A DNA stretch of 24,000 bases, taken from Eubacterium sp. AF22-8LB. Its GTDB lineage: Bacteria > Bacillota_I > Bacilli_A > Erysipelotrichales > Erysipelotrichaceae. A model generated the notes under the pieces. It saw only the letters and a list, made by a program, of their open reading frames with translations, did not search any database and was not told where the DNA came from. Below, in pieces: positions 1,719 to 20,424 of the stretch. The position numbers and the translations under genes are program-made. The stretch is from positions 57,997-81,996 of the forward strand of contig NZ_QRVI01000001.1 of the NCBI RefSeq assembly GCF_003458715.1. The letters are read 5' to 3'. The stretch's first letter is position 1; each line of letters begins with the position of its first letter.

Positions 1719-2964
1719 TTTTATCATTGGTCTGAAGCATACCTTGAGAACCTAATGTTCCAATATTCTTAATTGTTTCATCGACACTATGAGCAACGAT
1801 TCCATCTCCTGCATAGAATTGTTGCTTATTTTTATACATATAATATCCCATTATACCCGCATCTACACTAGATGCGATCTTTGCAGCACAGCTAGCCTTT
1901 GCCCCATCACAAATTGTTCCCGAAAGAATGGCTAACGCATTCACAATTGTATGTTGAATTTCTTTATAATCACCATTATGTAAATAAGCAATACCAGCGC
2001 CCGCTGCAGCTCCTGCACTTACAGCACCACAGAATGCGGATAAAGTACCAATACCCGTTTTTATATAAATAGCTGTTAAATTTGACAATACTAAAGCTCG
2101 ATACAATTTTTCTTCTGAACAATTCAATTCTTTGGCATACACAACAACAGGAACACAACAAGTGATTCCTTGATTGCCACTACCTGAATTGATCACAACA
2201 GGTAACTCACAACCATTCATTCTCGCATCAGAACCTGCGGCAGCATAGGCTTTTGCCCTTGTCTTTACACAATCCGAATCCATATTTAAAATCACATGTC
2301 CAATATTTGCGCCATATGAATTATTAATGCCTTCATTAGCGATAGCCATATTGCAGGTAATTTGTTGGTCTAAAGTTGCCTTTACATCTTCAATATCTAC
2401 AGTTTGTGAAAAATCCCAAATCTGTTTCATGATCAACGCACTATGATCTGCTTTATACTCTAAGTTCGTTGTCTTATCTTCATAGATAACTTCCCAGTTC
2501 TTTTCTATTTGAACAATGTTTGTATGTGTATCCACAATACGAACACTCGCATGTTCCTGTTCATAATATACATTGATTTCTAGGTCAAAGACATGTCCCT
2601 GTTCAAAATGTTGAACTGTTATATTGGTATTCTTGACATATTCAGGCAACGCTTCTATCTGCTCTTTTGTTGCAGTAGAAAGCACCTCAAGTTTGGCATC
2701 CGCATCCCCATATAATGCACCCGCTGCTGCTGCCACTTCAATTCCTTTTAAACCATTTGTATGAGGAACAATAACACTCTTTACATTTTTGATAATGCTG
2801 CCACTTGCCTTAACTACAATTCGATCAGGCAAATGATCTAAAACCTGCGTTGCCTTAGCACACGCATAACTAATCGCAATAGGTTCTGTACAGCCCATTG
2901 CCATAACTAATTCTTCTTTTAAGATTTGTACATAAATTGAATATAATGAATCTTCTTTATTCAT
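1690..2964 (-). CDS. cyuA: L-cysteine desulfidase family protein (UPF0597, YhaM/CyuA-like, serine dehydratase alpha-like fold)
   Basis: Near full-length motif match to E. coli YhaM recalled from memory: GCTEPIA, HTNIV, SDARM, NSGSGNQGIT, ICDGAKASCA, GIVA and a QTNDKIIEMM tail. Confidence 0.8.
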   Translation of the reverse strand: MNKEDSLYSIYVQILKEELVMAMGCTEPIAISYACAKATQVLDHLPDRIVVKASGSIIKNVKSVIVPHTNGLKGIEVAAAAGALYGDADAKLEVLSTATKEQIEALPEYVKNTNITVQHFEQGHVFDLEINVYYEQEHASVRIVDTHTNIVQIEKNWEVIYEDKTTNLEYKADHSALIMKQIWDFSQTVDIEDVKATLDQQITCNMAIANEGINNSYGANIGHVILNMDSDCVKTRAKAYAAAGSDARMNGCELPVVINSGSGNQGITCCVPVVVYAKELNCSEEKLYRALVLSNLTAIYIKTGIGTLSAFCGAVSAGAAAGAGIAYLHNGDYKEIQHTIVNALAILSGTICDGAKASCAAKIASSVDAGIMGYYMYKNKQQFYAGDGIVAHSVDETIKNIGTLGSQGMLQTNDKIIEMMISCD

Positions 2965-3574
2965 GATCTTTCACCCATACACACACCAACTTATCGTCTT
3001 CCATTTGTGTCATACCAAAATACACTGTATCCTTTTCTTTTACACCAAAATCTTGATGTAGAGCCGTCAACACAGTACCATACATCTTCCCATCCTGCAT
3101 TCCCTCAAGTCTTATCCAACATGCTTCTGGCTCTTTTCCTTCTTCTAGAAAATAAACCATAACATCATCTGGATATTCTAAATGTCTTGATGGATCTAAT
3201 TCTTTATATAAACGCAATTCTTCTAATTCCTTTGATACTTGCGTTGCCTTTGCGACAATATCGATTTTATCTTGAAACAAATCCACATTCACATTATCTA
3301 AAATTTCAATATTCATTTCTTGCACATCAAATCGTGGGATTTTACAAGAAACCCCAATAGGAACAATACGATATTCAATATTTTGCTTTTTTGTTTCTAA
3401 AGCCATGATTTCAAATGTGAATCCCGCATTATGATCAATATACCCATACATTAAAGCTCCATATAAATGATCAAGCTTCAAGCCCATCTTTTCTAATAGT
3501 TTAACCATTTTCACACCGTGAATCTCCACCATTTTTTGGTTCATGTCACGAAAACTCATTTCATATACTTTCAT
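2957..3574 (-). CDS. Hypothetical protein of 205 aa. The C-terminal roughly 60 aa weakly resemble a DUF2314-type beta domain.
   Basis: Clean ORF, 8-nt overlap with cyuA and a 2-nt gap to the upstream gene. I recognise no confident family. Segment EACWIRLEGMQDGKMYGTVLTALHQDFGVKEKDTVYF. Confidence 0.6.
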   Translation of the reverse strand: MKVYEMSFRDMNQKMVEIHGVKMVKLLEKMGLKLDHLYGALMYGYIDHNAGFTFEIMALETKKQNIEYRIVPIGVSCKIPRFDVQEMNIEILDNVNVDLFQDKIDIVAKATQVSKELEELRLYKELDPSRHLEYPDDVMVYFLEEGKEPEACWIRLEGMQDGKMYGTVLTALHQDFGVKEKDTVYFGMTQMEDDKLVCVWVKDHE

Positions 3575-3576
3575 TC

Positions 3577-4122
3577 CTATTCACCCTCATACACATCTTT
3601 TAATTCTATAAAATTATCTTCAAAATACTTATTCAGTTCTACGATATCTAAATCTTCATCTATTGGAAAATCCGATACTTCCATATCATTTGCCTCTACA
3701 AATTCTTTAAACAATTCCATTGACTGATAATAATAATCCTGAAACTCTTTAAAGATTTCCCATAACGAAAAGCCCCGACCATTGATAACTCTAGCCTCTT
3801 CTTCTATATCATTCACTTTTTCAACATGAATTTCAATTTCAAAAGGATCTTCTAAATCATACAACATTTTAAAAGTATCTCCCTCTTTGAAATCAGGTTG
3901 AATCAAGGATGCACAAGGCAAATGATTGAATTGTTCATCCTCACAATTTGGACATACAAAAGGAAGTCCATTGCTTTCAATCACAAAATCTAAATATTCT
4001 TCAGACAAATAAGATGCCAATGTATAATAAGCTAAATCCGCTAAAGAAATTGATTTAGGCAAACTCACATATCGATACATTAAATTATTATATCCTAATA
4101 CTTCTGTATATATTTTTATCAT
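3577..4122 (-). CDS. Hypothetical protein, possibly pRiA4b ORF-3-like (PF07929-like) domain protein
   Basis: IKIYTEVLG..MYRYVSLPKSISLADLAYYTL and MLYDLEDPFEIEIHVEKV resemble the family pattern (kV.L....iWRri.vp...tL.dLH ... YeYDfGD.WeHeI.vE). The start overlaps the MscS stop as ATGA. Confidence 0.45.
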   Translation of the reverse strand: MIKIYTEVLGYNNLMYRYVSLPKSISLADLAYYTLASYLSEEYLDFVIESNGLPFVCPNCEDEQFNHLPCASLIQPDFKEGDTFKMLYDLEDPFEIEIHVEKVNDIEEEARVINGRGFSLWEIFKEFQDYYYQSMELFKEFVEANDMEVSDFPIDEDLDIVELNKYFEDNFIELKDVYEGE

Positions 4123-6530: not shown

Positions 6531-7317
6531 AAGCTCCATAATATTCATCTAAAGTTAAGTTGTTCTTATATAAATATGTAGCTAGATCCACACCAACATA
6601 TCTTAAATGCCAGCTTTCAGGAGCTATTTTAGTCTTATCTTCCTTATCATCCGGATAACGTAAAATAAATCCATATTTATGCATATTTTTTAATAACCAA
6701 CCATAATGTGAATTATATCGAACAGCATCTAAATCACTACAATCATTATCCATACGAATATCTACAGACAAACCGGATTGGTGCTCACTATATCCTGGTC
6801 TTGTCCAATAACGATCTGCATACTCTTCACCATAGCTTGCAGCTCCATTATTAAACAAATCCGTTTGGTAAGCGTAAGAACGATATGCCGAACAAGCATT
6901 CAAAATAAATCCTTCTTTTTCGGCTGCATCAATCAATTTATTAAATGCCTTTGCGGCAGGCTTACGCATACGCACATTCGCATTTTCTCCACTCGAAGGC
7001 ACTTCAACCAAATCCTTTGGCTCATAATCTTCTGGCAATCCTGAATATTTATTTACAAGAATATAAATAGAATCCAAATCTGAAACCGTGATAGTATTCT
7101 CATAAGGCTCTTTGCTCTGATCGACCTTTGTCACTTTTGGCAAATTCGTTTCCGTATCTTCTTTTTTAGAAACCACTTCCTGTGTTTGTTGCGGCTGACT
7201 CACCTTATTATCATTCGTTCTTTTCATAATCAATGCCAATAATAACGCAATAATCATAATCAATACGATTATCACAAACACAAGAAATTTTCTTACTCTT
7301 CTTCTTTTCTTTTTCAA
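6529..7317 (-). CDS. VanY-type D-alanyl-D-alanine carboxypeptidase (peptidase M15B), membrane-anchored
   Basis: KKKRRR followed by a TM helix, then the M15B motifs SEHQSGLSVD and WHLRYVG. I moved the start to the TTG at 7317 (SD AGAGGTG 6 nt upstream), which removes the 38-nt overlap implied by the ORF-track ATG at 7368. Confidence 0.85.
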   Translation of the reverse strand: MKKKRRRVRKFLVFVIIVLIMIIALLLALIMKRTNDNKVSQPQQTQEVVSKKEDTETNLPKVTKVDQSKEPYENTITVSDLDSIYILVNKYSGLPEDYEPKDLVEVPSSGENANVRMRKPAAKAFNKLIDAAEKEGFILNACSAYRSYAYQTDLFNNGAASYGEEYADRYWTRPGYSEHQSGLSVDIRMDNDCSDLDAVRYNSHYGWLLKNMHKYGFILRYPDDKEDKTKIAPESWHLRYVGVDLATYLYKNNLTLDEYYGA

Positions 7318-7330
7318 ATCAAACACCTCT

Positions 7331-8698
7331 TTAAACTGGAATAAACAACACTTTATTATAGCCCCCACAAATCATGCCCAATGACGCACCCTTAGAATTG
7401 GATAAATTATAGTCTTTGATCATGACTTTTTTACATGCCCTCGCATCTAATATAGCTTCATATTCCACTTTTCCTCCACCTATTGTGTCAATAATTCCAT
7501 CTTTATACACGAGCATCATACTTCCAACACCTCTTGGTGCCGAGCCTTTTTTCTCAATAATAATGCATAATGTTCCGTGAACATTGGATTCCAACAATTC
7601 TTTAGAAACACTCGAGCTAAACTTCGCATTCTTGATTTCAATCAATTGAGCCAAAATACTAATCGATATTTCAGCTGGCGTCTGTGCCCTGATATCTAAA
7701 CCAATAGGTGCATGTACTTGGGATATTTTTTCTTTTGAATAGCCTTCTTCAATCAAAGCATCAAAAGTTTTTTTCACTTTCCCTTTACTGCCAATCATCC
7801 CTAAATATAAATGAGGTCGCCAAAGAACCTTTTCTAAACATAGACGATCATCCTTATGACCTCGAGTTACAATCACATAACATGTATTGTCTTCATTTGG
7901 CAATATTGAATCCATTTGATTATATTCCATACAATGAATTTCATTTGCGGTTGGAAAACACTCCTTATTCGCAAACTCTATGCGATTATCAATTACGATT
8001 GTATACAGTTCTAGAATACTGGCCATCTTGGCTAAATACTGACTTACATGCCCACACCCCAAAATCACCAGCTTAGGTTGTGTTTTAAACCAATCTTCAC
8101 AAATGCAATCCACATCTATATCTTCTTCTAACAATGTTTTTAGACAACGCGTATATAGATTCGAATCCCCATTCACATGAATTTTAACAGGTTTATCTAG
8201 CTTCTTTAAATACACACGAATCAAATCCTGCATAATTTTAGGTGTAACCAATTCATTCGGATCAATATCCATTAACGTATATCGATGTATCACATTCTTT
8301 ACAGGATTACCCAATCCTTTCAGATTGGAAATCAATACAATTTCATCCGAATCTAAATCAATGACAGGTTCCTTTTCATTCGGATATTTTAAAGGTAAAT
8401 GTTTAGAACCATCCGCTTCTATCAAAATCACATCCACCATTTTTTTAAGTTGATTCAACAAGTTCAAATCTAAGGCACAAATTTTTTTATCATCACACAA
8501 ATTTCCCGCATGACAATACCCATACTTTTCAATTTGATGCATTATTTCATCCAAACTAGGATTGACTAAAGTATCCTCTTCTATCAACATATGTGTCGTT
8601 GTACACATTAATACTGTTTTTCCCTGTGATACATATTTATCTTTTAATTCATGGATATATGTTGTTTTTCCACCTGAACCAATAACACTAATAATCAT
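7331..8698 (-). CDS. Fusion protein: YqeC-family selenium cofactor biosynthesis P-loop protein (N-terminal about 210 aa) joined to an XdhC-family Moco-insertion chaperone module
   Basis: YqeC motifs: ISVIGSGGKTT, CTTTHM, ILIEADGSKHLPLKYPNEKEPVI. XdhC Rossmann part: LVILGCGHVSQYLAKMA...GMIGSKGKV...HAPIGLDIRAQTPAEISISILAQLIE. XdhC_CoxI-like part at the extreme C-terminus: KKGSAPRGVGSMMLVYKDGIIDTIGGGKVE...MICGG. Start set at the ATG at 8698 (SD GGGAGA 6 nt upstream) rather than the GTG at 8719. Confidence 0.8.
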   Translation of the reverse strand: MIISVIGSGGKTTYIHELKDKYVSQGKTVLMCTTTHMLIEEDTLVNPSLDEIMHQIEKYGYCHAGNLCDDKKICALDLNLLNQLKKMVDVILIEADGSKHLPLKYPNEKEPVIDLDSDEIVLISNLKGLGNPVKNVIHRYTLMDIDPNELVTPKIMQDLIRVYLKKLDKPVKIHVNGDSNLYTRCLKTLLEEDIDVDCICEDWFKTQPKLVILGCGHVSQYLAKMASILELYTIVIDNRIEFANKECFPTANEIHCMEYNQMDSILPNEDNTCYVIVTRGHKDDRLCLEKVLWRPHLYLGMIGSKGKVKKTFDALIEEGYSKEKISQVHAPIGLDIRAQTPAEISISILAQLIEIKNAKFSSSVSKELLESNVHGTLCIIIEKKGSAPRGVGSMMLVYKDGIIDTIGGGKVEYEAILDARACKKVMIKDYNLSNSKGASLGMICGGYNKVLFIPV

Positions 8699-9779
8699 TT
8701 GAAATCTCCCGAATCGCACAAATTGCTAAATCTATATCTTCAATTGAATTTTGAAAAGATAATGATAAGCGAACTATTCCCTTTTCTTCTGTTTTTAAAT
8801 GTTTATGCATAAGTGGTGCACAATGCGCACCACAACGCGTTATAATACCATACTTATAATTCAGTACATCACTCACATAAGCACTATCTTTATGTGGAAT
8901 ATTGAATGCCACAATCGAAGTAGAATTTTGTAAAGACGAATAAAATTCTACATATCCTTCTAAACCTGAATATAGTCTTTCTAATAAAAAACGTTCCTTT
9001 TCAATAATCTCTTTTTGATGCGAAGCAACATATTGAACACCTGCATTTAAAGCCGCAATTCCAACTAAATTCTGTGTTCCCGCCTCTAAATGCTCTGGAT
9101 ATGCATGGGGCATTTCTTGACTAAAAGAATCTATACCCGTTCCACCAGAAATCAAAGGTTTTACTTCAATGTCTTTTACACAAAAACCACCAATACCACC
9201 GATACCTAAAAGGCCTTTGTGTCCACTAAAACATAAGATATCTATGTTTTCTATAGACACAGGAATATGTCCTGCACTCTGTGCTGCATCTACCATCAAT
9301 AACACACCATGTTCTTTACAATAGTGTCCAATTTCTTGCACATCAAAAATTTCTCCAGTCACATTTGAACTGTGAGTCATAACAACCATTCGTGTATTTA
9401 GCTGAAATTGATTTTTAATATCCTCTAGATAAGGCGAACAAATTGTTAGTGAAATGAACCCCTTCTTTTCTAACTCATATAAAGGGCGAAGAACACTATT
9501 ATGCTCTGCATACGTCGTGATCACATGATCCTTTTCTTTTAAGATTCCTTTGATGCATGTATTTAAGCTTTCCGTATTTCCACTATTCAATATCACACGA
9601 TGAAAATCTGGTATTTGAAAAAAATTAGCCACGTTTTTTCGTGTTTGAAAAATCAAACGCGAAGCATCCATATTCGCACTGCGATTGGCATTTCCAGCTA
9701 CCTCCATAGCTTCTATGACAGCTTGCTTCACAGTATCAATTTTAGGAAAACTCGTTGCTGCCTGATCAAGATAAACCAT
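8688..9779 (-). CDS. Class V aminotransferase: NifS-like cysteine desulfurase / selenocysteine lyase (short EF2568-type subfamily)
   Basis: YLDQAATSFP N-terminus, PLP lysine in FSGHKGLLG and active-site Cys in RCGAHCAP. The 363-aa length with a short N-terminus fits the clade linked to the E. faecalis SelD/YqeB/YqeC cluster. Confidence 0.8.
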   Translation of the reverse strand: MVYLDQAATSFPKIDTVKQAVIEAMEVAGNANRSANMDASRLIFQTRKNVANFFQIPDFHRVILNSGNTESLNTCIKGILKEKDHVITTYAEHNSVLRPLYELEKKGFISLTICSPYLEDIKNQFQLNTRMVVMTHSSNVTGEIFDVQEIGHYCKEHGVLLMVDAAQSAGHIPVSIENIDILCFSGHKGLLGIGGIGGFCVKDIEVKPLISGGTGIDSFSQEMPHAYPEHLEAGTQNLVGIAALNAGVQYVASHQKEIIEKERFLLERLYSGLEGYVEFYSSLQNSTSIVAFNIPHKDSAYVSDVLNYKYGIITRCGAHCAPLMHKHLKTEEKGIVRLSLSFQNSIEDIDLAICAIREISNDY

Positions 9780-10557
9780 GCAATATAGCCTCCAAGACGC
9801 CTCCTGCTATGCAGCGTGCTTTATCTGAAATCGTAAAACAATTCTGATATTCACCGATTCTTGGATCAATATCTGCCATTTTAAAGCCTGTCGTTACATA
9901 ATATCCATCTTGAATCAAGCCCCGAAGTAGCCCTGACATGCTCGCATAAACAGGTGTCTTGTCTACATACGCAATAATTTCATTCTTTTCCACAATATCT
10001 GTAATCTTTTTTACATTGTGACAAGCACCCTCACAAGGCGAATGAATCACTCTTTCTTTAGAATATCCCTTAATATTTCCAGGTACACCCGTATTTGGCA
10101 ATGCGCAACCATCGTAAATCAATCTTCCTAAATTATGTCCACGCATTGTTTCCACAACAACATGTACATCTTTGCCCGCACAAAAACCTGGGCCAAGACC
10201 AATTGTAATAGGCGCCATATCCATTGTTGTTCCTAAATTCTTTTTAGCTAGAATCGCATCCACTAAGGCCACATGTTCTATTTTCAAAATCATTTCTCCA
10301 TTTGGATCCACCATCATTGCCACTTGATTCTTTGACATGACTTCTTTTGCTTCTTCAATTGTAGAAACTAAAATACACGTCATATCTTCAACAGAAAATT
10401 CACCTTCATATACAGCTTGGCAAAAAGCAACATTTCTTCGTATCGCGCTTGGCTTTTCGACTTCTAACACCAAGACTTGAAATCCACTCTTCACAAGCTT
10501 ATAGATTGTTCCTGTCGCAATGTCTCCTCCACCACGCACAATTACACATTTATCCAT
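9766..10557 (-). CDS. yqeB: Selenium-dependent molybdenum hydroxylase system protein, YqeB (EF2563) family
   Basis: 263 aa. N-terminus VIVRGGGDIATGTIYKLVKSGFQVLVLEVEKPSAIRRNVAFCQAVYEG is characteristic of this family as I recall it. Confidence 0.75.
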   Translation of the reverse strand: MDKCVIVRGGGDIATGTIYKLVKSGFQVLVLEVEKPSAIRRNVAFCQAVYEGEFSVEDMTCILVSTIEEAKEVMSKNQVAMMVDPNGEMILKIEHVALVDAILAKKNLGTTMDMAPITIGLGPGFCAGKDVHVVVETMRGHNLGRLIYDGCALPNTGVPGNIKGYSKERVIHSPCEGACHNVKKITDIVEKNEIIAYVDKTPVYASMSGLLRGLIQDGYYVTTGFKMADIDPRIGEYQNCFTISDKARCIAGGVLEAILHGLS

Positions 10558-10562
10558 AATCC

Positions 10563-11156
10563 TTACGGCTTGATAATTTTATCAGCCTTCTCCATTCTCT
10601 CTACAATATCATACATATTTGTGACAGATCCTACTTGTAACTCTTCTTTTAAGTGGAAGAAATCCAAACAAGTTCCGCAACTTACAATTTCAACTCCATT
10701 TGATTCCAAATATTTCAAATCCTCTAAAGTCTCATTCTTTGTTGTTGTGATTTTTACACCCTCATTATAAAAAATCATTTCATCTGGTAAAGCATCCTGC
10801 TTTGTCAAAGAAAAGATGAATGATTTCATTAATAAAGTGCCTAATTCCGGGTTTGATCCCATCACATTGCTTGCGCAAACCACTACCATTTTAGGTTTAG
10901 CACAACTACAATCTGCATATGTGTATTCCACTTCAAAATCAGCCTCTTCATCACCCTTTGAAATTTCAACAATATAATCCTTGCCCTCTTGTTTTGAACT
11001 TACCGAATAGTTCTTCACCTTCGCAAATTTAGTTAAGTTTTCAACCGCAATTTCATTATCTACAATTGTTGAAACTACATTCTCCTCTTTCAAAGCATCC
11101 TTGGTTTTTACGACTGGAAGTGGACACTCCAATCCTCTACAATCTAAAGTTTTCAT
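10563..11156 (-). CDS. yedF: YedF-type selenium metabolism protein (TusA/SirA-like N-domain fused to a DsrE-like C-domain)
   Basis: 197 aa. CPxP sulfur-carrier motif in LDCRGLECPLPVVKTK. The C-terminal domain has GSNPELGTLLMKSF...FYNEGVKI...SCGTCLDFF...NMYDIVE. Confidence 0.8.
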   Translation of the reverse strand: MKTLDCRGLECPLPVVKTKDALKEENVVSTIVDNEIAVENLTKFAKVKNYSVSSKQEGKDYIVEISKGDEEADFEVEYTYADCSCAKPKMVVVCASNVMGSNPELGTLLMKSFIFSLTKQDALPDEMIFYNEGVKITTTKNETLEDLKYLESNGVEIVSCGTCLDFFHLKEELQVGSVTNMYDIVERMEKADKIIKP

Positions 11157-11160
11157 CTCT

Positions 11161-12177
11161 CTACCTCACATATACATTATATTCATTTTTATCAATAACT
11201 TCACCCACAACATATAGCTCGAGATTGTTTTCTATAAAATTCTTTTTTATATCCATCAAATCTTCTTTAGATACACTTGCCAACAATCCACCACTGGTTT
11301 GTGGATCAAATAAAATCTCTTCCGTAAAGAAATCACAATCAAAATAAATCTTACCCTCTACGCTGTTTCGATTCGTCTGTGCAGCCCCACTCAAATAGAA
11401 CTCTTCCACATATCTTTTACAATCATCAAAACAAGGAATCGAATCCTTGTAAATTATGGCACTGTTCTTGTCATCTAACATTTCATTTAAATGTACTAAT
11501 AGTCCAAAACCAGTCACATCCGTTAAAGCATGCACATCATACTTTTTTAAAGCATCACACGCATACTTATTTAGCGTAGTCATGCTTTTAAAGACACGCT
11601 GCTGCATACTTTCTGAACAATCGTCCATGCGCAAAGCATTTAAAGTTAATCCTACTCCAAGTGGCTTTGTCAAAATTAAGACGTCTCCACTTTCAGTCCC
11701 ATTATTTTTCTTTACGTCTTTCGGATTTACTAATCCTGTTACACTCAAGCCATATTTAATTGAATCATCACGAATAGAGTGGCCTCCTGCCAACGCACAC
11801 CCAGCTTCAACCAGCTTAGAATTTCCTCCCTCAATGATTTTACCTAAAATATTCAAATCCTCATTATCCGGAAAACACACAATATTTAAAGCTGTTTTAG
11901 GCGTACCATTCATCGCATAAATATCGCTCAATGCATTCGTTGCCGCAATCTGGCCATATAGATATGGATCTTCTACCATAGGTGGAAAGAAATCCAACGT
12001 GGATACAAAGGCATGACTTTCATCAATTTGATACACAGCTGCATCATCCCTAGAATCAAAGCCAACCAACACATTATCATTTTTATAAGAATCAATTTTT
12101 TCTAAAATGTGGCTTAATTTTTTAGCCCCTAATTTAGCACTACATCCACCACTCTTACAATATATTTTCTCATTCAT
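11161..12177 (-). CDS. selD: Selenide, water dikinase (selenophosphate synthetase), Cys-type
   Basis: N-terminal glycine-rich loop SGGCSAKLG, with the catalytic position encoded by TGT (Cys, not a TGA Sec codon). AIR-synthase-like fold motifs: DDAAVY, LDFFPPMVEDPY, ALSDIYAMNG, GGHSIRD, TDVTGFGL. 338 aa. Confidence 0.9.
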   Translation of the reverse strand: MNEKIYCKSGGCSAKLGAKKLSHILEKIDSYKNDNVLVGFDSRDDAAVYQIDESHAFVSTLDFFPPMVEDPYLYGQIAATNALSDIYAMNGTPKTALNIVCFPDNEDLNILGKIIEGGNSKLVEAGCALAGGHSIRDDSIKYGLSVTGLVNPKDVKKNNGTESGDVLILTKPLGVGLTLNALRMDDCSESMQQRVFKSMTTLNKYACDALKKYDVHALTDVTGFGLLVHLNEMLDDKNSAIIYKDSIPCFDDCKRYVEEFYLSGAAQTNRNSVEGKIYFDCDFFTEEILFDPQTSGGLLASVSKEDLMDIKKNFIENNLELYVVGEVIDKNEYNVYVR

Positions 12178-12398: not shown

Positions 12399-12723
12399 TT
12401 TCAAATATTTCCTTAAACACTTCGTCCGTATACATATCCACTTTTTCTTTGAATACTTTATATTTATGAACCAATATTTTCCCTTCCGGTGTTAAAAAAG
12501 AACCACCACCATGATTTCCTCCACTTATCGTATGAACTAGCTCATAGCCTAAATCCTCTTCAGCTCTTTTAATGATTTTCCAAGCCTTTGAATTTGACAT
12601 TCCCATTTCTTTATAGGCCCTCGATAAAGAGCCATATTGATCGCATAAGTCTAAGAGTTCGACAACGCCTTTGCCAAAATCCATTTCTTGGTTGCCAATT
12701 TGAATCTTTAATTTATATCTCAT
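12391..12723 (-). CDS. ModE N-terminal-domain-like winged-HTH protein (no Mop/TOBE molybdate-binding domains)
   Basis: GKGVVELLDLCDQYGSLSRAYKEMGMSNSKAWKIIKRAEEDLGYELVHTISGGNHGGGSFLTPEGK matches the ModE/LysR-type N-terminal domain. Start set to the ATG at 12723, which overlaps the upstream stop as ATGA. Confidence 0.65.
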   Translation of the reverse strand: MRYKLKIQIGNQEMDFGKGVVELLDLCDQYGSLSRAYKEMGMSNSKAWKIIKRAEEDLGYELVHTISGGNHGGGSFLTPEGKILVHKYKVFKEKVDMYTDEVFKEIFENE

Positions 12724-13733
12724 TTTCCAAAACCACAATTTGGATATGTGCAAGCCTTACATCCTAAGCACAATCCACCTTCTCCTAAATCACATAACTC
12801 TTCATAGGTAACTACATCTTTTGCGAGTAAACGAGGAAGTATTAAATCAAACACCGTTCTTTTGGCATACATGACACAGCCTGGAAGCCCCACAATTGGT
12901 ACTTCGCCTTTATAGGAAAGTAAAAACATAGCTCCAGGAAGAACAGGCGATCCATAACTAATTATATTGGCTCCGGTATTCTTGATTGCAAGTGGCGTTT
13001 TGTCGTCTGGATCCACACTCATTCCACCTGTACAAAGTACAATATCTACACCTTGTTTTAATGCTTCATTAATTTTTTTGGTCACCATTTTATCATCATC
13101 ATCGCAAATTTCATGATAAACCATTTCACAACCAAACTCAGCTAATTTTTTCTGAATAACGGGTGTAAATGTATCTTTGATTCTTCCCTTATACACTTCA
13201 CTTCCTGTTGTGATCACAGCTGCTTTTTTTAATACAAAAGGCTTAATTTCTAGAATTGGAGAAACAACTAAAGAACGGACTTTCTCCATTTTTTCCTTTT
13301 CAATCACCAAAGGAATAATACGCATACCTGCCAATTTATCTCCAGGATGAACCACCATATTTCCATGTCGAGTCGCAATCATCATTTGTCCAAATGAATT
13401 CACAGTAAACAAAGATTTACGATCCACTTTAAACAAACCATGGATGTCACTTTTTAATTCAATCTTACCCTCTTTGATTTCACCATACGACATATATTCA
13501 TTTTTACACATGTCTAGCAAAACCATAGCTGCATCATTTTCATGCATCATACTCTCGTCATTTTCCCAAACATATAAATTTTCTTTCCCCACCGATAACA
13601 ATAAAGGAATATCTTCTTCTGTCACGATATGACCCTTACGAAAAAGGGCATCTTTTGTGACACCCTTTATAATCTGCGTTATATCATGACAAAGTACATG
13701 CCCTACGGCATCCTCAGTTTTGATTAATTTCAT
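12720..13733 (-). CDS. MoeA-like molybdopterin-binding protein (atypical short form with a Cys-rich C-terminal tail)
   Basis: Central MoCF_biosynth domain: AAVITTGSEVYKGRIKDTF...DIVLCTGGMSVDPDD. The N-terminus is only loosely MoeA_N-like and there is no MoeA_C domain. The tail is CDLGEGGLCLGCKACTYPNCGFGK. Confidence 0.65.
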   Translation of the reverse strand: MKLIKTEDAVGHVLCHDITQIIKGVTKDALFRKGHIVTEEDIPLLLSVGKENLYVWENDESMMHENDAAMVLLDMCKNEYMSYGEIKEGKIELKSDIHGLFKVDRKSLFTVNSFGQMMIATRHGNMVVHPGDKLAGMRIIPLVIEKEKMEKVRSLVVSPILEIKPFVLKKAAVITTGSEVYKGRIKDTFTPVIQKKLAEFGCEMVYHEICDDDDKMVTKKINEALKQGVDIVLCTGGMSVDPDDKTPLAIKNTGANIISYGSPVLPGAMFLLSYKGEVPIVGLPGCVMYAKRTVFDLILPRLLAKDVVTYEELCDLGEGGLCLGCKACTYPNCGFGK

Positions 13734-13734
13734 A

Positions 13735-14511
13735 TTACTCTCCTTTTTTGAATCCGTATTTCTTAAATACTTTTAATGCTTTATCGCTCTTTAAGAATTT
13801 AATTAATGAATCCGCTTCATCTTTGTGCTTTGTACTAGAAACACGACCTACTGGATATAGGACTGGTGTAGCTAATAATGAATTATCGCACTCTGCCACT
13901 ACTTCTACTTTATCACTACTTGCCGCATCTGTCGCGTAAACCAAACCAACTTCTGCATTTCCTGCTTCAACCTGAGACAATACTTCAGTTACATTTCCAG
14001 CTAAACTTAGACGATCTTGAAGCAAATCCCATACACCTAAATTTGTCAAAGCCTCTTTTGCGTAGCTTCCTGCTGGCACAACCTCTGGATCTCCAATCGC
14101 AATCATAGAAGCAGCACTAATATTGTCAAATCCAGTTACTGTTGTATTGCTGCCTTTTCCTTTGATCAATACTAATTTATTTTCTAATACATTTGAAATA
14201 GAATCCGCATCTACTAAATTTTCATCTTTTAAAGCGTTCATCTGTGTTGTAGCTGCACTAAAGAAAACATCTGCATCTAAACCTTTTTCAATTTGAAGCT
14301 GTAGCTTTCCACTACTATCATACACACCTTCGATTGTCACATTTGAATACTCCTTTTCAAACATAGGAATCAATTCATCTTCAAATGCATTCTCTAAACT
14401 TGCCGCAGCTGCAATTGTTAGTTTTACTTCTTCTTTCGGTTTATTTGAACTACACCCAAATAAACTTGTGGCCATCACTCCAGCCAATAAAATACTTAAA
14501 CCTTTTCTCAT
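13735..14511 (-). CDS. modA: Molybdate ABC transporter substrate-binding lipoprotein
   Basis: Signal peptide with lipobox LFGCSS. ModA-type motifs: TIAAAASL, VYDSSGKL, DVFFSAA, IGDPEVVPAGSYAKEAL, VLYPV. Confidence 0.85.
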   Translation of the reverse strand: MRKGLSILLAGVMATSLFGCSSNKPKEEVKLTIAAAASLENAFEDELIPMFEKEYSNVTIEGVYDSSGKLQLQIEKGLDADVFFSAATTQMNALKDENLVDADSISNVLENKLVLIKGKGSNTTVTGFDNISAASMIAIGDPEVVPAGSYAKEALTNLGVWDLLQDRLSLAGNVTEVLSQVEAGNAEVGLVYATDAASSDKVEVVAECDNSLLATPVLYPVGRVSSTKHKDEADSLIKFLKSDKALKVFKKYGFKKGE

Positions 14512-15140
14512 GTAATTTCTCCGTCTTTAATCTTATATTTTAGATCACACAAATAATTCACTTCTTCCTTATTGTGTGATACAAAAATAACGGGTTTTGA
14601 GATTCGAAGCTCGCTTTTAAGCTCCTTTAATAAATCTTCCTTTAAATCTTCATCCAAAGCACTAAACGGCTCATCGAGCAATAATACATCGGGCTCATAC
14701 GCCATCAAACGAGCTAATGCCACTCTTTGTCTTTGTCCACCTGACAATTGTTTAGGATATCTTGGAGCAAGTTCACTAATTCTAAATTGTTTCATCACTC
14801 TTTTAACAACAAAATCCACATCGTTCACTTTTCTAGCTTTTAATCCCATACTAATATTTTCATATACATTCATATTAGGAAATAAAGCATAGCTTTGAAA
14901 CATATACCCCACGTTGCGTTTTTGAATGGGAATATTGATTTTCTTTTCGGAATCAAATAAAACACGATTATTCAAAGTAATTCGCCCTTTATCTGGTGTT
15001 TCAATACCTGCAATACATTTTAATGTCATACTTTTACCTGAGCCTGAAGCCCCCATAAGGCCTAATATATTGTCTTCTACTTGAAATGAAATATCTAAAT
15101 CAAACTCTGCAAGCTTTTTGTATATTTGTACTTCTAACAT
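14508..15140 (-). CDS. modC: Molybdate ABC transporter ATP-binding protein, minimal NBD (210 aa, no C-terminal TOBE domain)
   Basis: Walker A GASGSGKS, Q-loop, signature LSGGQRQR, Walker B LLLDEP and H-loop VSHN. The protein ends about 20 aa after the H-loop. Confidence 0.8.
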   Translation of the reverse strand: MLEVQIYKKLAEFDLDISFQVEDNILGLMGASGSGKSMTLKCIAGIETPDKGRITLNNRVLFDSEKKINIPIQKRNVGYMFQSYALFPNMNVYENISMGLKARKVNDVDFVVKRVMKQFRISELAPRYPKQLSGGQRQRVALARLMAYEPDVLLLDEPFSALDEDLKEDLLKELKSELRISKPVIFVSHNKEEVNYLCDLKYKIKDGEIT

Positions 15141-15830
15141 TTAGAAACTCCTTTTCTTCCGAACATACAATTGATATAGATTCAACAAGATTACAGCTGT
15201 AAAACAAATACCAATAATTACCCACACATAAAAGGCAGCAGAATCCATATCTCCACTCATCACTTCACTATAAACAGCAACCGGAAGTGTCCTTGTCTTT
15301 CCTATAATGTTTCCCGCAAGCATTGCCGTTGCCCCAAACTCACCTAGACCACGCGCAAAAGCAAGTACTCCACCACTAATAATTCCCGGCAAGGCATTGG
15401 GAATTAACACCTTTAAAAAGATGCTCCATTCACTCATTCCTAGAGTTCTTGCGACATAGACCAAATCCATATCCACCTGTTCAAAAGCCCCCCTGGCATT
15501 GCGGTACATAAGTGGAAAAGATATCACAACAGCTGCAATCACGGTAGCGCTAAAGCTAAATGCGATACGAACACCAAATGCATTCATAAAGAACTTGCCT
15601 ACGGGTTGATTCACGCCAAAGATCATCAACAAGAAAAAGCCAGCTACTGTTGGTGGTAAAACCATAGGCAAAGTAAAGAGTCCATCAAATATCATTTTCA
15701 ATGCTTCACTTTTTCGTGAATAGATCCACCATGCAGCTAGCAAACCAAGAATAAACGTAATCACAATTGTGATACTTGCCGTTTTTAGAGATATCCAGAT
15801 AGGGGTTAAATCCAAGTTATTTCCTTGCAC
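15141..15830 (-). CDS. modB: Molybdate ABC transporter permease
   Basis: 229 aa with about 5 TM helices. EAA-loop region ARTLGMSEWSIFLKVLIPNALPGIISG. It sits next to modC and modA. Confidence 0.85.
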   Translation of the reverse strand: MQGNNLDLTPIWISLKTASITIVITFILGLLAAWWIYSRKSEALKMIFDGLFTLPMVLPPTVAGFFLLMIFGVNQPVGKFFMNAFGVRIAFSFSATVIAAVVISFPLMYRNARGAFEQVDMDLVYVARTLGMSEWSIFLKVLIPNALPGIISGGVLAFARGLGEFGATAMLAGNIIGKTRTLPVAVYSEVMSGDMDSAAFYVWVIIGICFTAVILLNLYQLYVRKKRSF

Positions 15831-16752
15831 ACTCTCTCGCTTCCCCTTTCATGATTTCTAAACCATGTTTTAATGGGCCTAAAATAATATCTAAGCTTTC
15901 CTTTACTGCCTTAGGACTTCCTGGTAAATTGATAATCAACGTTTGATTTCTTAATACACTTACACCACGTGACAACATAGCCTTGTTGGTATATTTCATC
16001 GATTCATAACGTAATGCCTCACTAATACCCGGAACATTGCGTGTCATAACTTTCATTGTGGCTTCCGGCGTCACATCACGAATACTTAACCCAGTTCCTC
16101 CGGTTGTAAGAATCAAATCATTTTGGCAACGATCACTTAAATTGATCAATTGCGAAATAATTTCATTTTCATCATCCGCAATTACCGTTACACTCGTCAC
16201 ATTGTATCCATGTTCTGTCATGATTTTTTTAATCAATGGACCACTCTCATCTTTTCTTTGTCCTACACTAGCCTTATCACTTAGTGTTAATACGGCTACG
16301 CGCATTCTAGAATCCTTATTTTCAATGACTTCAACTTTATTTCCAACACAAATATGTCCACCATGTATTACACGAGTAAACACCCCTAAATGAGGCATAA
16401 TACACTGTCCTACTTGATGATAAATAGCGCAATGTGAATGACAGCTTTTTCCAATTTGAGTAAGTTCTAGTAATACGTCTCCAATCTTAAATTGTGTTCC
16501 TACAGGATAATCTGTGAATTCAATACCTGATACAAGTAAATTTTCACCAAAGGCTCCATCCTCTACATTGGCTCCTTTGGCCTTAAATTCTTCACGCTTT
16601 TCATATGATAATAAAGAAACCTGGCGATGCCACTTGCCTGCATGTGCATCATTTTCTAATCCATGATCTTCAATAATTTTAATATCTTGAACTGGATGTT
16701 TTTCCGTTCCTTTTTGTTTGCTGATACAAATAGCTTTAATTATTCCTTCCAT
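15817..16752 (-). CDS. Fusion: MOSC domain (N-terminal about 145 aa) joined to a MogA/MoaB molybdopterin adenylyltransferase-type domain
   Basis: MOSC part: [19 protein letters not shown]...[11 protein letters not shown]...[10 protein letters not shown]...[10 protein letters not shown]. MogA/MoaB part: [11 protein letters not shown]...[21 protein letters not shown]...INLPGSPKA. Confidence 0.8.
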
Positions 16753-17216
16753 ACAAAATCCCCACTCTTTCCACCTGATTTAGAAACCAAATGTATATTC
16801 TTGATTTCCATATCTTTACTTATAGCTTTACACATGTCATAAATTGTCAGAAGACAAACATTCACACCTGTCAAGGCTTCCATTTCTACACCTGTTTTTC
16901 CATTACACTTAACTGTACAATAGGCGTAGATCAAACAATTCTCTTTATCGATTTCAAAATCAATATTTACTTTATTGATCATTAAAGGATGACACAAAGG
17001 AATCAAATCACTCGTCTTTTTTACACCCATGATTCCAGCTATTCGAGCTACACCTAGTACATCCCCTTTTTTCATATCGCTATGTTCGATTTTCTCAATA
17101 ATCTCTTTATTCACTAATATACTTCCAACAGCACAGGCGCTTCTTGAAGTGATATCCTTTTCACTTACATCCACCATACGTGCGTTTCCTTGTTTATCAA
17201 AATGCGTTAATTCCAT
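16740..17216 (-). CDS. moaC: Cyclic pyranopterin monophosphate synthase accessory protein MoaC
   Basis: [23 protein letters not shown] and GVEMEALTG motifs. I moved the start to the ATG at 17216 (SD GGAGG 5 nt upstream, 1 nt after the moaA stop) instead of 17234. Confidence 0.9.
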
Positions 17217-17217
17217 T

Positions 17218-18162
17218 TCATCCTCCAATTTCATTCATCACCGTCGATGAATTTTCCTTCTCAAAATGATGTTCCTTAGGCTTCTTGAATATCCACTCTC
17301 TCATCACTTTTTCTAATTCTGATAAATTATCTAAATATGGCTTTAAATCCACACCATCCATATGGAATAAACATAATTTCAATCGTCCTACACTACTTAA
17401 GCGTATACGATTACAGTCTTGACAAAACTTATTATGTAACGCTTCAATAAAACCAATATAGCCTTGATAATCTGTTATTTTATAATAGTGTGCCGGCCCA
17501 TTTCCAAGCTTTTTATCGTACACATTTAATGTATAATTCTTTTGTACATATTCAATCAATTCATCCATTTTTGTGTTTCGATCACTATTCTTTAATGGCA
17601 TCAGTTCAATAAATCGCAGCGCAATCTTTTTATCTTTGATGAGTTCCAACATAGATTCAAAGCGTGAAAATGAAAATAGATTATCCACAACACAATTCAC
17701 TTTAACCGCAATTCCAATCTTATAAGCATATTCCAAATTCAAAAGAATTTTCTTCAAATTATTTATCTTACATATCTTTAAATATTCAGATTCATCTAAT
17801 GTATCAATTGAAAAATTTATACAATCAATACCAATCTTTTTGAGTTCATCTAAATCAGAAAACGAAAATAAACTTCCATTGGTCGTTAGTGTTACTTGTT
17901 CAACACCATCTAATTCTTTCAATCTACGAATAAATCCAATATATCCTTTACGAAGTGTGGGTTCTCCACCCGTAATTTTAAATCGCGTGATTCCTAATAA
18001 AACGGCACATCTACAAATATCTAAAAGTTGTTCATACGTTAATATATCCGAATGACAAAGATGTTTTGCGATATCTGGCTTGCAGTAGTAACAAGCATAG
18101 TTACATCGGTCTGTTAATGAAATTCGCATATAATTTATGTTTCGTCCAAATGAATCTTGCAT
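17218..18162 (-). CDS. moaA: GTP 3',8-cyclase MoaA (radical SAM)
   Basis: [19 protein letters not shown] radical-SAM cluster motif, a C-terminal CxxCxRxRL second cluster ([12 protein letters not shown]) and a terminal GG. SD GGGAAGGA. Confidence 0.9.
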
Positions 18163-18251: not shown

Positions 18252-18791
18252 ATGAAACGATGTACGTGGTGTAATCTAAACAATCCAAAATATATTGAAT
18301 ATCATGATAACGAATGGGGAAAACTGAATACAGATGAAAAATATCTATTTGAAATGTTGATACTTGAATCTTTTCAGGCAGGACTAAGCTGGCAATGTAT
18401 TCTAAATAAAAGAGAAGCTTTTAAAGAGGCTTATGAAGACTTTGACATTGATAAAGTGATTGAATTTGATGAAGAAAAAGTAGAACAATTAAGAAACAAT
18501 CCTAATATCATTCGTAACAAATTAAAGATCAAAGCGAGTATTTCAAATGCGAAGATTTTTAAATCCATTCAAGAAGAGTATCAAACTTTTTATAATTATT
18601 TATGTACTTTTACACATGGGAAGATTAATTATGAAACAGGAAAAACCACATCGACTCTTTCGGATTCCATATCAAATGATTTAAAAAAAAGAGGCATGAA
18701 GTTTGTAGGAAGCACCATTATATACTCCTATCTTCAAGCCATTGGTGTTATTTATTCTCACGAAAAAGATTGTTTCTTATACAAAGACTAA
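18252..18791 (+). CDS. tag: DNA-3-methyladenine glycosylase I
   Basis: Full-length similarity to E. coli Tag recalled from memory: RC.W....P.YI.YHDNEWG, FEML.LE.FQAGLSW, KFVG.TI.YS.LQA.G...H...C. Confidence 0.9.
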   Translation: MKRCTWCNLNNPKYIEYHDNEWGKLNTDEKYLFEMLILESFQAGLSWQCILNKREAFKEAYEDFDIDKVIEFDEEKVEQLRNNPNIIRNKLKIKASISNAKIFKSIQEEYQTFYNYLCTFTHGKINYETGKTTSTLSDSISNDLKKRGMKFVGSTIIYSYLQAIGVIYSHEKDCFLYKD

Positions 18792-19120
18792 TCCCATGTT
18801 TTCCATACATTTGGTTCATAACCTACTGTCGCCAATTTGCCGTTACGCACGATTGGCGTTTTTAGTATGTGCTGGTTAAGATACACCTTTTCCTCTTTAT
18901 TCGATAAATAATTCAACATCGTCAATAATTCTTTATCCTTCGCCTTTGGATCAATCATAGAATCAATTCCTACTTGTCTTAATACACTCTCAAATTCTTT
19001 CTTACTCATTTCTTTTTCATCTAAATTGATAAACTGAAACTTAATATTTCTTTCTTTAAAATAGCGTTGTGCTTTCTTTGTATCAAAGCACTTGTTCTTC
19101 CCAAAAATCTGTATATTCAT
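18788..19120 (-). CDS. ArsC/Spx/YffB-family thioredoxin-fold protein
   Basis: 110 aa. N-terminus IQIFGKNKCFDTKKAQRYFKERNIKFQFINL is typical of the ArsC family. Its start overlaps the upstream amidohydrolase stop as ATGA. Confidence 0.7.
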   Translation of the reverse strand: MNIQIFGKNKCFDTKKAQRYFKERNIKFQFINLDEKEMSKKEFESVLRQVGIDSMIDPKAKDKELLTMLNYLSNKEEKVYLNQHILKTPIVRNGKLATVGYEPNVWKTWD

Positions 19121-20382
19121 CGCATTAACCTCTCTACCCTTTTTTGTACTTCATCATATAGTGTCTCAATCTCAAATCCTACATGAAAATGTCCATCTTC
19201 ATATAGAATCTTTCCATTGACCATCGTATATTTTACATTGGATTTAGATCCGCTGTATACAATATTTTTTGCGACATTATTCATTGGCTGCATATTCGGT
19301 TGATGTAAATCTAAAACAATTAAATCTGCCAACTTTCCAGCTTCTAATACCCCACAATTTAAATTTAAAGCCTTGGCTGCATTGACTGTAGCCATTTTTA
19401 GTACTTCATATGCATCGACTGCAGAAGCATCCTTCTCTTTATATTTTGCCAATCCCGTCACTAAAAACATTTCTCTAAACATATCTAGACAATTATTACT
19501 TGCCGCACCATCCGTTCCTAGACATATGTTAATCTTTCGTTGAAGCATCGATTGGATTGGGGCTATACCACTGGCAAGCTTTAAATTGGATGCAGGATTC
19601 GTGATAACATTTAAGTGTTTTTCTTCAAATAACGCTAAATCGTGTTCACTCATATGCACACAATGAAAGGCTCCACCGCCATAGTCATATACACCTAGAT
19701 CACATAAGTATTCAACAGGACTGCGTCCCGTCTTTTCTTTGCATGTATTAACTTCATATTCTGTTTCACTTAAATGTGTATAAACAGGTGCTTTATATTT
19801 ATGAGATAATGCAGCTACTTGTTGAATTTTTTCTTTAGAATTAGTATATTCATGACTAAAACCTAGTATATAAGAAATCAAACTATTTTCTTGATTGTAT
19901 TCATTGAAGCAACGCTCTACATCTTCTACAGATAGACAAAAGTCATTGACCGCACCACACAAAACTGTTCTATAATTCATATCAAGGCTTGCGTGTAAAA
20001 TAGCTTCTGGATTAATATACATATCAAAATTGGAAGTGATGCCGCTGGTTAAATATTCTAATATAGCTAATTTTGAGAAATAATAAATATCTTCTTCTGA
20101 AAGCTTTGCCTCAATCGGAAATACTTTTTCATTCAGCCACTGCTGTAAAGGCATATCATCGGCCATGGATCTTAAAAATGTCATTCCAGAATGGGTATGC
20201 GCATTGATAAAGCCAGGCATAATTAGATTCTGGCGTACATCTATTTCTCGGTCAAAACAAAAAGTAGAAGCTTTCACTTTTCCTACATATATAATCTTAT
20301 TATCTTCTATCCAGACTTCTCCTGAAAAAATATCAAAATCCTTCATCGTGAGGATTCGTGCATTATAGAATCGAATACGCAT
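19117..20382 (-). CDS. Amidohydrolase, MtaD-like (5'-methylthioadenosine / S-adenosylhomocysteine deaminase / chlorohydrolase family)
   Basis: PGFINAHTHSGMTFLRSMADDMPLQQWLNEKVFPIE, HLSET, LGTDGAASNN and LDL motifs. Start set to the second ATG at 20382 because its spacing to SD GAAGGG is better than for the ATG at 20388. Confidence 0.7.
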   Translation of the reverse strand: MRIRFYNARILTMKDFDIFSGEVWIEDNKIIYVGKVKASTFCFDREIDVRQNLIMPGFINAHTHSGMTFLRSMADDMPLQQWLNEKVFPIEAKLSEEDIYYFSKLAILEYLTSGITSNFDMYINPEAILHASLDMNYRTVLCGAVNDFCLSVEDVERCFNEYNQENSLISYILGFSHEYTNSKEKIQQVAALSHKYKAPVYTHLSETEYEVNTCKEKTGRSPVEYLCDLGVYDYGGGAFHCVHMSEHDLALFEEKHLNVITNPASNLKLASGIAPIQSMLQRKINICLGTDGAASNNCLDMFREMFLVTGLAKYKEKDASAVDAYEVLKMATVNAAKALNLNCGVLEAGKLADLIVLDLHQPNMQPMNNVAKNIVYSGSKSNVKYTMVNGKILYEDGHFHVGFEIETLYDEVQKRVERLMR

Positions 20383-20424
20383 ATGCATCCCTTCTTTCTA
20401 ATCTAATCATCCCACAAATAGAAT

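Follow-up and report, generated by a model that had tools for sequence, protein, structure and literature searches.

The window analysed here is a stretch of 24,000 nucleotides (nt) from Eubacterium sp. AF22-8LB (contig NZ_QRVI01000001.1, positions 57,997 to 81,996). Its gene of interest encodes a single-chain fusion of YqeC, a marker of the selenium-dependent hydroxylase trait, to a module of the XdhC type, the family of molybdenum cofactor (Moco) chaperones. The fusion gene is the last of a co-oriented run, in which the mod/moa Moco genes, selD, yedF, yqeB, and a gene for an SclA-like lyase precede it. The gene and its parts are the following, with residues counted in amino acids (aa):

7331..8698, minus strand: complete coding sequence (CDS) of the YqeC-XdhC fusion, 455 aa plus the stop codon at 7331-7333
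8084..8698, minus strand: YqeC module, aa 1-205 (PF19842 and TIGR03172, over cutoffs)
8660..8680, minus strand: Walker A P-loop GSGGKTT, aa 7-13, read from the sequence
7619..8083, minus strand: XdhC Rossmann-like domain (XdhC_C), aa 206-360 (PF13478)
7334..7618, minus strand: linker and XdhC_CoxI-like domain, aa 361-455 (PF02625; Pfam core at nt 7433-7594)
7361-7381, minus strand: LGMICGG motif, invariant, within the CoxI-like domain

The open reading frame (ORF) listing gives the gene as a single uninterrupted ORF, 7331..8719 on the minus strand, if it is read from a GTG. We dropped this GTG start at 8719 for the ATG at 8698, since a ribosome-binding site (GGGAG, 8 nt upstream) and the N-termini of the homologues, which begin with MII..., mark the ATG as the real start; the CDS overlaps the last 11 nt of the upstream gene. 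Pfam positions were numbered from the GTG, and subtracting 7 converts them to the 455-aa numbering. In GTG numbering, PF19842 (YqeC) covers aa 10-147 (expectation value (E) 3e-35, 121.9 bits against a gathering threshold of 27.6), PF13478 (XdhC_C) aa 217-359 (E 2e-38, 132.2 bits against 29.7), and PF02625 (XdhC_CoxI) aa 376-429 (E 7e-15, 55.1 bits against 24.3). Among the NCBIfam models, TIGR03172 (YqeC) passed its cutoff of 73.05 with 130.2 bits. Two XdhC models matched in two split stretches each, TIGR02964 (xanthine_xdhC) with 134.9 against a cutoff of 161.6 and NF045664 (XdhC_rel_AOR) with 247.9 against 350. Together with pairwise alignments, these hidden Markov model (HMM) scans bear out the order YqeC, XdhC Rossmann, XdhC_CoxI that the initial annotation had read from the letters, and the motifs quoted there were all found (GSGGKTT, TTTHM, IEADGSK..PLK, LVILGCGHVSQYLAKMA, PIGLDIRAQTPAEISISILAQLIE, GSAPRGVGSMM, and MICGG). 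With its 455 aa, the protein is longer than a single-domain YqeC (about 210-270 aa), and the XdhC module follows after aa 205. An AlphaFold2 (AF2) model of the whole fusion, made with 50 homologues, reached a predicted local distance difference test score (pLDDT) of 92.6 and a predicted template modelling score (pTM) of 0.86.

The YqeC part is 30% identical to E. coli YqeC (b2876) over aa 2-141, and the P-loop, TTTHM, and EADGS motifs are common to both. The E. coli protein, which likewise co-occurs with yqeB and selD, is a single domain of 256 aa, whereas the window protein runs on into the XdhC module. In E. coli YqeC, the alignment covers HMM positions 2-165 of 213, and both proteins possess the strand-helix unit that follows. 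Judged from its sequence, the fused part is a complete YqeC, and an AF2 model of this part alone has a pLDDT of 96.4. Foldseek found no close solved relative of the YqeC part; its best matches were BioD (dethiobiotin synthetase), MinD, NifH, FtsY/SRP54, HypB, and MeaB, with template modelling (TM) scores of 0.4-0.5 and E values of about 1e-3 to 1e-2. By this distant fold resemblance of the model, YqeC is a predicted P-loop nucleoside triphosphatase (NTPase) of the SIMIBI class. A 2024 genetic study of C. difficile described YqeB and YqeC as having "no known predicted domains" and found the role of YqeC puzzling (PMC11448449).

The fusion is widely conserved. A search over 5.8 billion proteins returned 2226 relatives, and we inspected the best 120 clusters. 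Almost all of these best 120 are 445-485 aa long, cover the full query, carry the three Pfam domains, and share at least 48% identity with it. When HMMs built from the three segments (YqeC, Rossmann, CoxI) were used to call architectures, 115 of the 120 clusters showed the YqeC-Rossmann-CoxI order, the remainder being truncated entries. A genome scan with one genome per species found a relative in 301 genomes, and the results given here on fusion loci cover the best 80 of these 301; in these, residues 1-455 were matched at 42-86% identity and in identical segment order. The 80 genomes, described as gut Bacillota, include Holdemanella (81-86%), Faecalibacillus, Catenibacterium, Anaerostipes, Faecalibacterium, and Gemmiger as well as other Lachnospiraceae, Oscillospiraceae, and Anaerovoracaceae. 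The 90% cluster of the window protein includes WP_295570917.1 from Holdemanella biformis (gut, Erysipelotrichaceae). NCBI labels the protein by its YqeC half alone ("selenium cofactor biosynthesis protein YqeC"), JGI by its XdhC half ("xanthine dehydrogenase accessory factor").

Across 50 homologues, all three modules have invariant motifs. In the YqeC part, these are G7, G9, G10, K11, and T12 of the P-loop, TTTHM, and EADGS, followed by W203 and F204 at the junction. The Rossmann motifs GxGH, GMIGS, and APIG are invariant, as are the CoxI motifs GSxPR (GSxPRGxGxxM), GGG..E (GGGxxE), and LGMICGG and the residue Cys444. A few variants of the architecture were seen. P0204 (749 aa) is a longer fusion that consists of a GNAT acetyltransferase, YqeC, a spacer, and XdhC, and P0142 (534 aa) and P0175 (597 aa) carry insertions of at least 45 aa inside YqeC. 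P0092 (353 aa, 74 member sequences, 265-kb contig) has YqeC and Rossmann segments without the C-terminal CoxI; instead of being a fragment left by a contig end, it may be a real truncated form, or its gene may be split.

The order of the two XdhC domains in the fusion is the reverse of that in E. coli YqeB, 2WE7, and 3ON5, where CoxI comes first. Solved structures related in sequence come from only two families, 2WE7/2WE8 and 3ON5. In pairwise alignments, query aa 211-361 correspond to residues 201-356 of 2WE7, its C-terminal part, and query aa 386-461 to residues 26-105, its N-terminal part. Likewise, aa 207-364 match E. coli YqeB 103-262 with 32% identity and aa 365-455 match YqeB 7-99 with 35% identity. 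The C-terminal 95 aa are therefore CoxI-like, as the initial annotation had claimed, by PF02625 (E 7e-15) as well as by the alignments to 2WE7 26-105 and YqeB 7-99. A Foldseek comparison of the model with the PDB aligned about 155 columns to 2WE8/3ON5, in the Rossmann lobe only, which is expected of a permuted relative because Foldseek is a sequential aligner and blind to permutation. According to a suggestion of the initial annotation, the CoxI-like lobe may pack against the Rossmann lobe whatever the order of the two in the chain.

To what extent the reversal belongs to the fusion was decided by its nearest XdhC relatives. A search with the XdhC module by itself (258 aa) among 1.84 billion representatives at 50% identity gave 13,853 relatives, of which we classified the best 150. 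Stand-alone proteins with the Rossmann-then-CoxI order (R-C) and without YqeC make up 118 of these 150, 79 of them with an N-terminal extension (m-R-C) and 39 without it; 17 representatives carry YqeC, 14 have the canonical order, and one has CoxI at both ends. In 133 of the 150, query aa 4-258 were covered by one colinear stretch. Pfam placed XdhC_C at 92-234 and CoxI at 256-320 in the stand-alone protein P0131, and found P0140 and P0168 to be R-C only. The Rossmann domain of the window is 48-53% identical to the permuted stand-alone forms and 35-40% to canonical ones. The permutation proposed for this protein is thus real with respect to canonical XdhC, but it does not distinguish the fusion: the stand-alone forms rule out a reversal unique to it, and since Rossmann-then-CoxI is common among ordinary XdhC proteins, the claim is partly undercut on a point that the initial annotation had itself named as contrary evidence. 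The reversed order most probably belongs to the whole clade and is older than the fusion. As part of the joint best explanation developed below, we consider it probable that the permutation was inherited from a stand-alone clostridial XdhC clade and is not an adaptation to the fusion.

Several observations bear on how the reversed order arose. Residues 5-238 of P0131 form one unbroken alignment with positions 110-344 of the canonical model NF045664 (346 positions), which identifies the N-terminal extension as the "middle" domain of canonical long XdhC. By these alignments, the stand-alone family is a true circular permutant, middle-Rossmann-CoxI as against CoxI-middle-Rossmann, both of about 340 aa. 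An HMM of the extension matches the middle of the canonical protein P0254 and weakly the first CoxI of short canonical forms (E 1e-5 to 1e-2), and because of the latter matches we regard the extension as a degenerate CoxI-like domain. The same HMM matches the fusion P0214 (565 aa) between YqeC and Rossmann (E 1e-16), so that at least one fusion retains the middle domain; it gave no match in the window protein, from which this domain of about 80 aa is absent. The m-R-C form is found in 116 of the 120 closest relatives of P0131, and in C. beijerinckii, C. botulinum, C. saccharoperbutylacetonicum, and C. difficile permuted forms bear the plain label "XdhC/CoxI family protein". Canonical long XdhC is common in Clostridia too (117 of 120 relatives of P0127). 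P0127 (434 aa) and P0502 (441 aa) are rare proteins of the order CoxI-middle-Rossmann-CoxI, which thus begin and end with CoxI. As a singleton from a contig of 1.8 kb, with a C-terminal half 76% identical to a YqeC fusion, P0127 may be a chimera, and P0502 is the sole other protein of this kind found, so that the pair is a lead only as an intermediate of the permutation.

The reversed order could also have come about without a classical circular permutation, i.e., without tandem duplication and trimming of both ends, if a C-terminal CoxI was added while the N-terminal CoxI decayed into the middle domain or was lost. The CoxI-like character of the extension (the weak HMM match mentioned above) and the existence of short R-C forms without it (P0140, P0168) speak for such a history. 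However, the extension of P0131 matches the canonical middle domain and not the first domain, the canonical long and the permuted proteins are equal in length (about 340 aa), and the duplication model predicts proteins with CoxI at both ends such as P0127 and P0502, with the reservation that P0127 may be chimeric. We therefore regard CoxI addition as a serious but rather unlikely route and retain inheritance from a permuted stand-alone clade as the preferred origin. In a neighbour-joining tree of the Rossmann and CoxI segments, fused forms fell into 8 separate pure clades among unfused ones; this tree is crude, not properly rooted, and carries no support values, and it was set aside for counting fusions.

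The genes that surround the fusion in the window belong largely to selenium and Moco metabolism. Those of the run, in order of distance from the fusion, and further features of the window are:

8688..9779, minus strand: class-V aminotransferase, cysteine desulfurase/SclA (EF2568 family)-like (PF00266, E 4e-68)
9766..10557, minus strand: yqeB, 263 aa (TIGR03309, 375 bits against a cutoff of 220, aa 5-260)
10563..11156, minus strand: yedF, selenium metabolism, TusA and DsrE domains (TIGR03527, 215 bits against 110)
11161..12177, minus strand: selD, selenophosphate synthetase (TIGR00476, 385 bits against 125)
12720..13733, minus strand: 337-aa protein with a molybdopterin-binding MoCF_biosynth domain (PF00994, aa 172-302)
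13735..18162, minus strand: modA, modC, modB, a MOSC-MoaB fusion, moaC, and moaA, for molybdate uptake and Moco synthesis (NCBIfam and Pfam)
15817-16752, minus strand: within these, the MOSC domain fused to a MoaB/Mog-like MoCF_biosynth domain
18788-19120, minus strand: small glutaredoxin-like protein, after the amidohydrolase and just upstream of the moa genes
19117-20388, minus strand: amidohydrolase, chlorohydrolase/guanine deaminase/SsnA-like, below all equivalog cutoffs
2957-3574, 3577-4122, and 20449-20880, minus strand: three ORFs of 143-205 aa without a Pfam match at E <= 1e-5

The end of the aminotransferase gene overlaps the start of the fusion gene. Its product scored 359 bits with TIGR01977 and 305 bits with NF040779 (SclA), both below cutoffs. 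The YqeB of the window is covered end to end by TIGR03309 and contains no XdhC domains. The run also holds a ModE-like regulator, listed with the 337-aa MoCF_biosynth protein upstream of selD. The N-terminal 170 aa of the latter protein gave no family match, and the protein is conserved in most fusion loci (40-94% identity). Homologues with 59-60% identity adjoin xdhC of either topology, the permuted form in L084/L085 (about 7130-8155, C. beijerinckii-like) and the canonical form in L092 (10005-11027, a Lachnospiraceae metagenome-assembled genome), and the 337-aa protein may be the Moco donor to XdhC. MOSC is the chalcogen-carrying, Moco-binding domain of eukaryotic Moco sulfurases, which makes the MOSC-MoaB fusion another candidate for ligand transfer. 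The amidohydrolase, with the glutaredoxin-like protein after it, could be related to purine metabolism. An Rfam scan of the window found no family at threshold, the Moco riboswitch included.

This neighbourhood recurs in the related genomes. In 76 of the 80 related loci, a short yqeB directly precedes the fusion, in some of them with the lyase gene interposed, and 3 of the other 4 have yqeB on the same contig at a distance of about 7 kb. As a rule, the loci also contain selD, yedF, and the lyase gene.

Unfused xdhC genes were sampled in two sets of loci, five with stand-alone permuted xdhC and four with canonical long XdhC from Clostridia. In all five permuted loci, yqeC/yqeB/selD genes, xanthine dehydrogenase genes, or both adjoin xdhC. 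In L090, yqeC, yqeB, and xdhC are direct neighbours, and yedF, selD, and a xanthine dehydrogenase operon come after them. In L082/83 (C. difficile) and L089, the permuted xdhC directly adjoins a xanthine permease gene and those for the flavin adenine dinucleotide (FAD), iron-sulfur (FeS), and molybdenum (Mo) subunits. In L084/85 (C. beijerinckii-like) and L086 (C. botulinum), the order is yqeC, yqeB, yedF, selD, further genes, a mocA-like gene, and then xdhC, and seven genes separate yqeC from the permuted xdhC in L084 and L086. Between selD and the mocA-like gene, these loci carry genes for an HGD-D protein (2-hydroxyacyl-CoA dehydratase-like) and a BcrAD_BadFG activator ATPase (L084/L085 3318-5269, L086 6406-8346), both of which are absent from the window. 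The canonical long XdhC, by comparison, lies in a FecCD/ATP-binding cassette (ABC)/methyltransferase/binding-protein/XdhC/NTPase_1 cluster in three of the four loci and adjoins a MoCF_biosynth protein and a molybdate transporter in the fourth; selenium genes were adjacent to it in none of the four clostridial loci. Small as the sample is, it points to the permuted clade as the XdhC form tied to xanthine dehydrogenase and selenium in these bacteria. In L087 (9001-10568), L088 (9001-10556), and L091 (9001-10949), the canonical XdhC is followed, with a 4-nt gene overlap, by a P-loop NTPase of family PF03266 (NTPase_1), which in one case is fused to NUDIX. Here, too, an XdhC-like protein is paired with a P-loop NTPase, independently of the YqeC fusion.

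YqeB, YqeC, and XdhC thus occur in three arrangements: XdhC-YqeB with a free YqeC in E. coli, a free YqeB with YqeC-XdhC in the window and the 80 best genomes, and all three separate but clustered in Clostridium. Haft and Self (2008, PMC2276186) noted that YqeB is frequently fused to XdhC-like domains, including in Haloarcula, and proposed YqeC as a co-accessory protein. The layout of E. coli YqeB (b2875, "XdhC-CoxI family protein YqeB") given in the initial annotation is correct: XdhC_CoxI at 12-74 and XdhC_C at 106-247 precede the YqeB part. Like the window fusion, this protein joins a CoxI plus Rossmann module to a marker of the selenium-hydroxylase trait, its gene adjoins that of the other marker, and its XdhC module is 32-35% identical to that of the window. 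However, its partner is YqeB, its module is N-terminal, and CoxI precedes Rossmann, whereas in the window the partner is YqeC, the module is C-terminal, and Rossmann precedes CoxI. That XdhC is attached here to YqeC and not to YqeB agrees with the 263-aa YqeB of the window being free of XdhC domains. The Rosetta-stone argument built on this swap also holds, since the parts are fused, alternatively fused, or separate but clustered across genomes; fusion and synteny suggest that YqeB, YqeC, and XdhC may act as one complex.

Two further kinds of protein help to place the module. The stand-alone permuted XdhC proteins of Clostridium (about 345 aa; P0131, P0290 from C. beijerinckii, P0321 from C. 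botulinum, and P0380 from C. difficile) share its R-C order, are its closest relatives, and lie in selD/yedF/yqeB/yqeC clusters, but they lack the YqeC fusion and have the N-terminal degenerate CoxI-like domain of about 80 aa. Canonical XdhC proteins (Rhodobacter capsulatus XdhC, E. coli PaoD, 2WE7/2WE8, 3ON5) share the two Pfam domains and the motifs, but have the order CoxI, (middle), Rossmann and no NTPase fusion; the way in which they bind Moco, have its chalcogen exchanged by a NifS-like partner, and insert it into the hydroxylase presumably serves as the template. The SIMIBI metallochaperones HypB and MeaB have in common with the fusion the fold class and the idea of an NTPase tethered to a cofactor handler, which is a functional analogy and not family membership. 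IcmF is a natural fusion of MeaB with its mutase. A literature search of open-access papers found none that describes the fusion of YqeC with XdhC or a permutation of the latter. The families that make up the protein are known, and domain databases show both its architecture and the permuted clade, yet as far as we checked these two are apparently undescribed.

What the fusion might do can be proposed by analogy. In Rhodobacter, XdhC takes over Moco from MoeA and keeps it bound while the cysteine desulfurase NifS4 carries out the sulfuration; XdhC then inserts the cofactor into XdhB (PMC2997495; PMC13653126). In the window, a motif-intact XdhC module is tethered to a P-loop-intact NTPase, and the gene overlaps that of a NifS-like lyase and lies near yqeB, yedF, selD, and Moco genes. 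We propose, with a probability of roughly 0.6, that the single-chain fusion of a complete YqeC NTPase to an XdhC Moco chaperone of the permuted clade serves as a nucleotide-gated platform for Moco during selenium installation. By analogy with Rhodobacter XdhC, the XdhC module would receive and hold Moco, the donor probably being the neighbouring MoCF_biosynth protein. The labile chalcogen ligand would be installed on the bound cofactor; here it would be selenium that arrives by way of SelD, YedF, and the lyase, and YqeB would participate. The YqeC NTPase, tethered in a 1:1 ratio, would by nucleotide binding or hydrolysis gate loading, modification, or hand-off to the apo-hydroxylase.

Several points weigh against this proposal. 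The XdhC module stays under the equivalog cutoffs of TIGR02964 and NF045664. YqeC resembles known NTPases weakly (TM 0.4-0.5, E about 1e-3), so that its nucleotide chemistry could be of more than one type. The 24-kb window contains no structural gene of a molybdenum hydroxylase, as no ORF exceeds 424 aa and no aldehyde/xanthine dehydrogenase domain was found in the ORFs scanned; the target enzyme of the cluster must thus be encoded elsewhere. The comparison of permuted with canonical contexts is small, with 5 against 4 loci. Finally, C. difficile lacking yqeC showed no obvious change of growth on xanthine or urate, in contrast to strains lacking yqeB or selD (PMC11448449). This mild phenotype indicates that YqeC is not essential to the chemistry and fits better with a role in the efficiency of the chaperone step; YqeC may be only an efficiency factor.

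The same deletion (PMC11448449) would also fit an incidental fusion, in which XdhC is an ordinary sulfur-type chaperone and YqeC is unrelated or dispensable, the two having been joined as co-expressed neighbours. Separate yqeC and permuted xdhC genes, moreover, are not always adjacent, with seven genes between them in L084 and L086. An incidental origin nevertheless appears unlikely: the fusion has been kept in several Bacillota families at 42-86% identity with the P-loop and the XdhC motifs invariant, the XdhC module is alternatively joined to YqeB, the other marker of the selenium-cofactor trait, and, to judge from the pTM of 0.86, the predicted domains are probably held in a fixed arrangement.

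A much less probable view is that the C-terminal 95 aa are a degenerate remnant and the XdhC module is inactive or merely regulatory. The domain does match only 54 of 68 Pfam positions, and its 55 bits are below the score of the Rossmann part. However, this score is well over the gathering threshold of 24.3, and none of the hallmark motifs varies among 50 homologues. The domain also shares 35% identity with the N-terminal lobe of YqeB from E. coli, and its pLDDT is mostly 84-97, with one loop at 70-77. An artefact, i.e., a frameshift (named in the initial annotation as a possible refutation) or assembly error joining adjacent yqeC and xdhC genes, is practically excluded despite some truncated entries (YqeC-Rossmann only in P0029, P0042, P0047, and P0092; N-terminally cut in P0030 and P0121), because the gene is one unbroken ORF, its full-length colinear layout is conserved in the 80 best species genomes, which are independent assemblies and isolates such as Holdemanella biformis DSM 3989, and in 115 of 120 clusters, and W203 and F204 at the junction are invariant.

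Within the proposed nucleotide-gated platform, a more specific division of labour can be suggested, which we put forward tentatively and at less than even odds. The permuted XdhC clade could be the dedicated cofactor holder of selenium-hydroxylase maturation in Bacillota, and YqeC its nucleotide-driven partner, acting on the chaperone (loading, closing, or release of Moco) and not in the selenium chemistry. If true, this would account for YqeC always accompanying YqeB, for the mild effect of its loss in C. difficile, and for its repeated fusion to XdhC.

Among the biological routes of selenium use, the one understood least is the attachment of the labile selenium ligand to Moco in the clostridial hydroxylases of xanthine, purine, and nicotinate, and selenium-dependent hydroxylases are relevant to the removal of urate by gut bacteria. 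The YqeC-XdhC fusion, the XdhC-YqeB fusions, and the unfused clusters of Clostridium together place YqeB, YqeC, and a chaperone of the XdhC type at one step of this route. They also give YqeC a concrete and testable job, that of an NTPase coupled to a chaperone. The architecture is not surprising in principle, but it opens the role of YqeC and the insertion of selenium to more direct tests. For annotation, it matters that equivalog models built on the canonical order under-score the permuted XdhC clade. At the same time, this clade lends itself as a natural experiment on whether chain connectivity matters for the XdhC cofactor site. If the proposed role is true, the single-chain Holdemanella protein would be a ready minimal system for the insertion of selenium into Moco in vitro.

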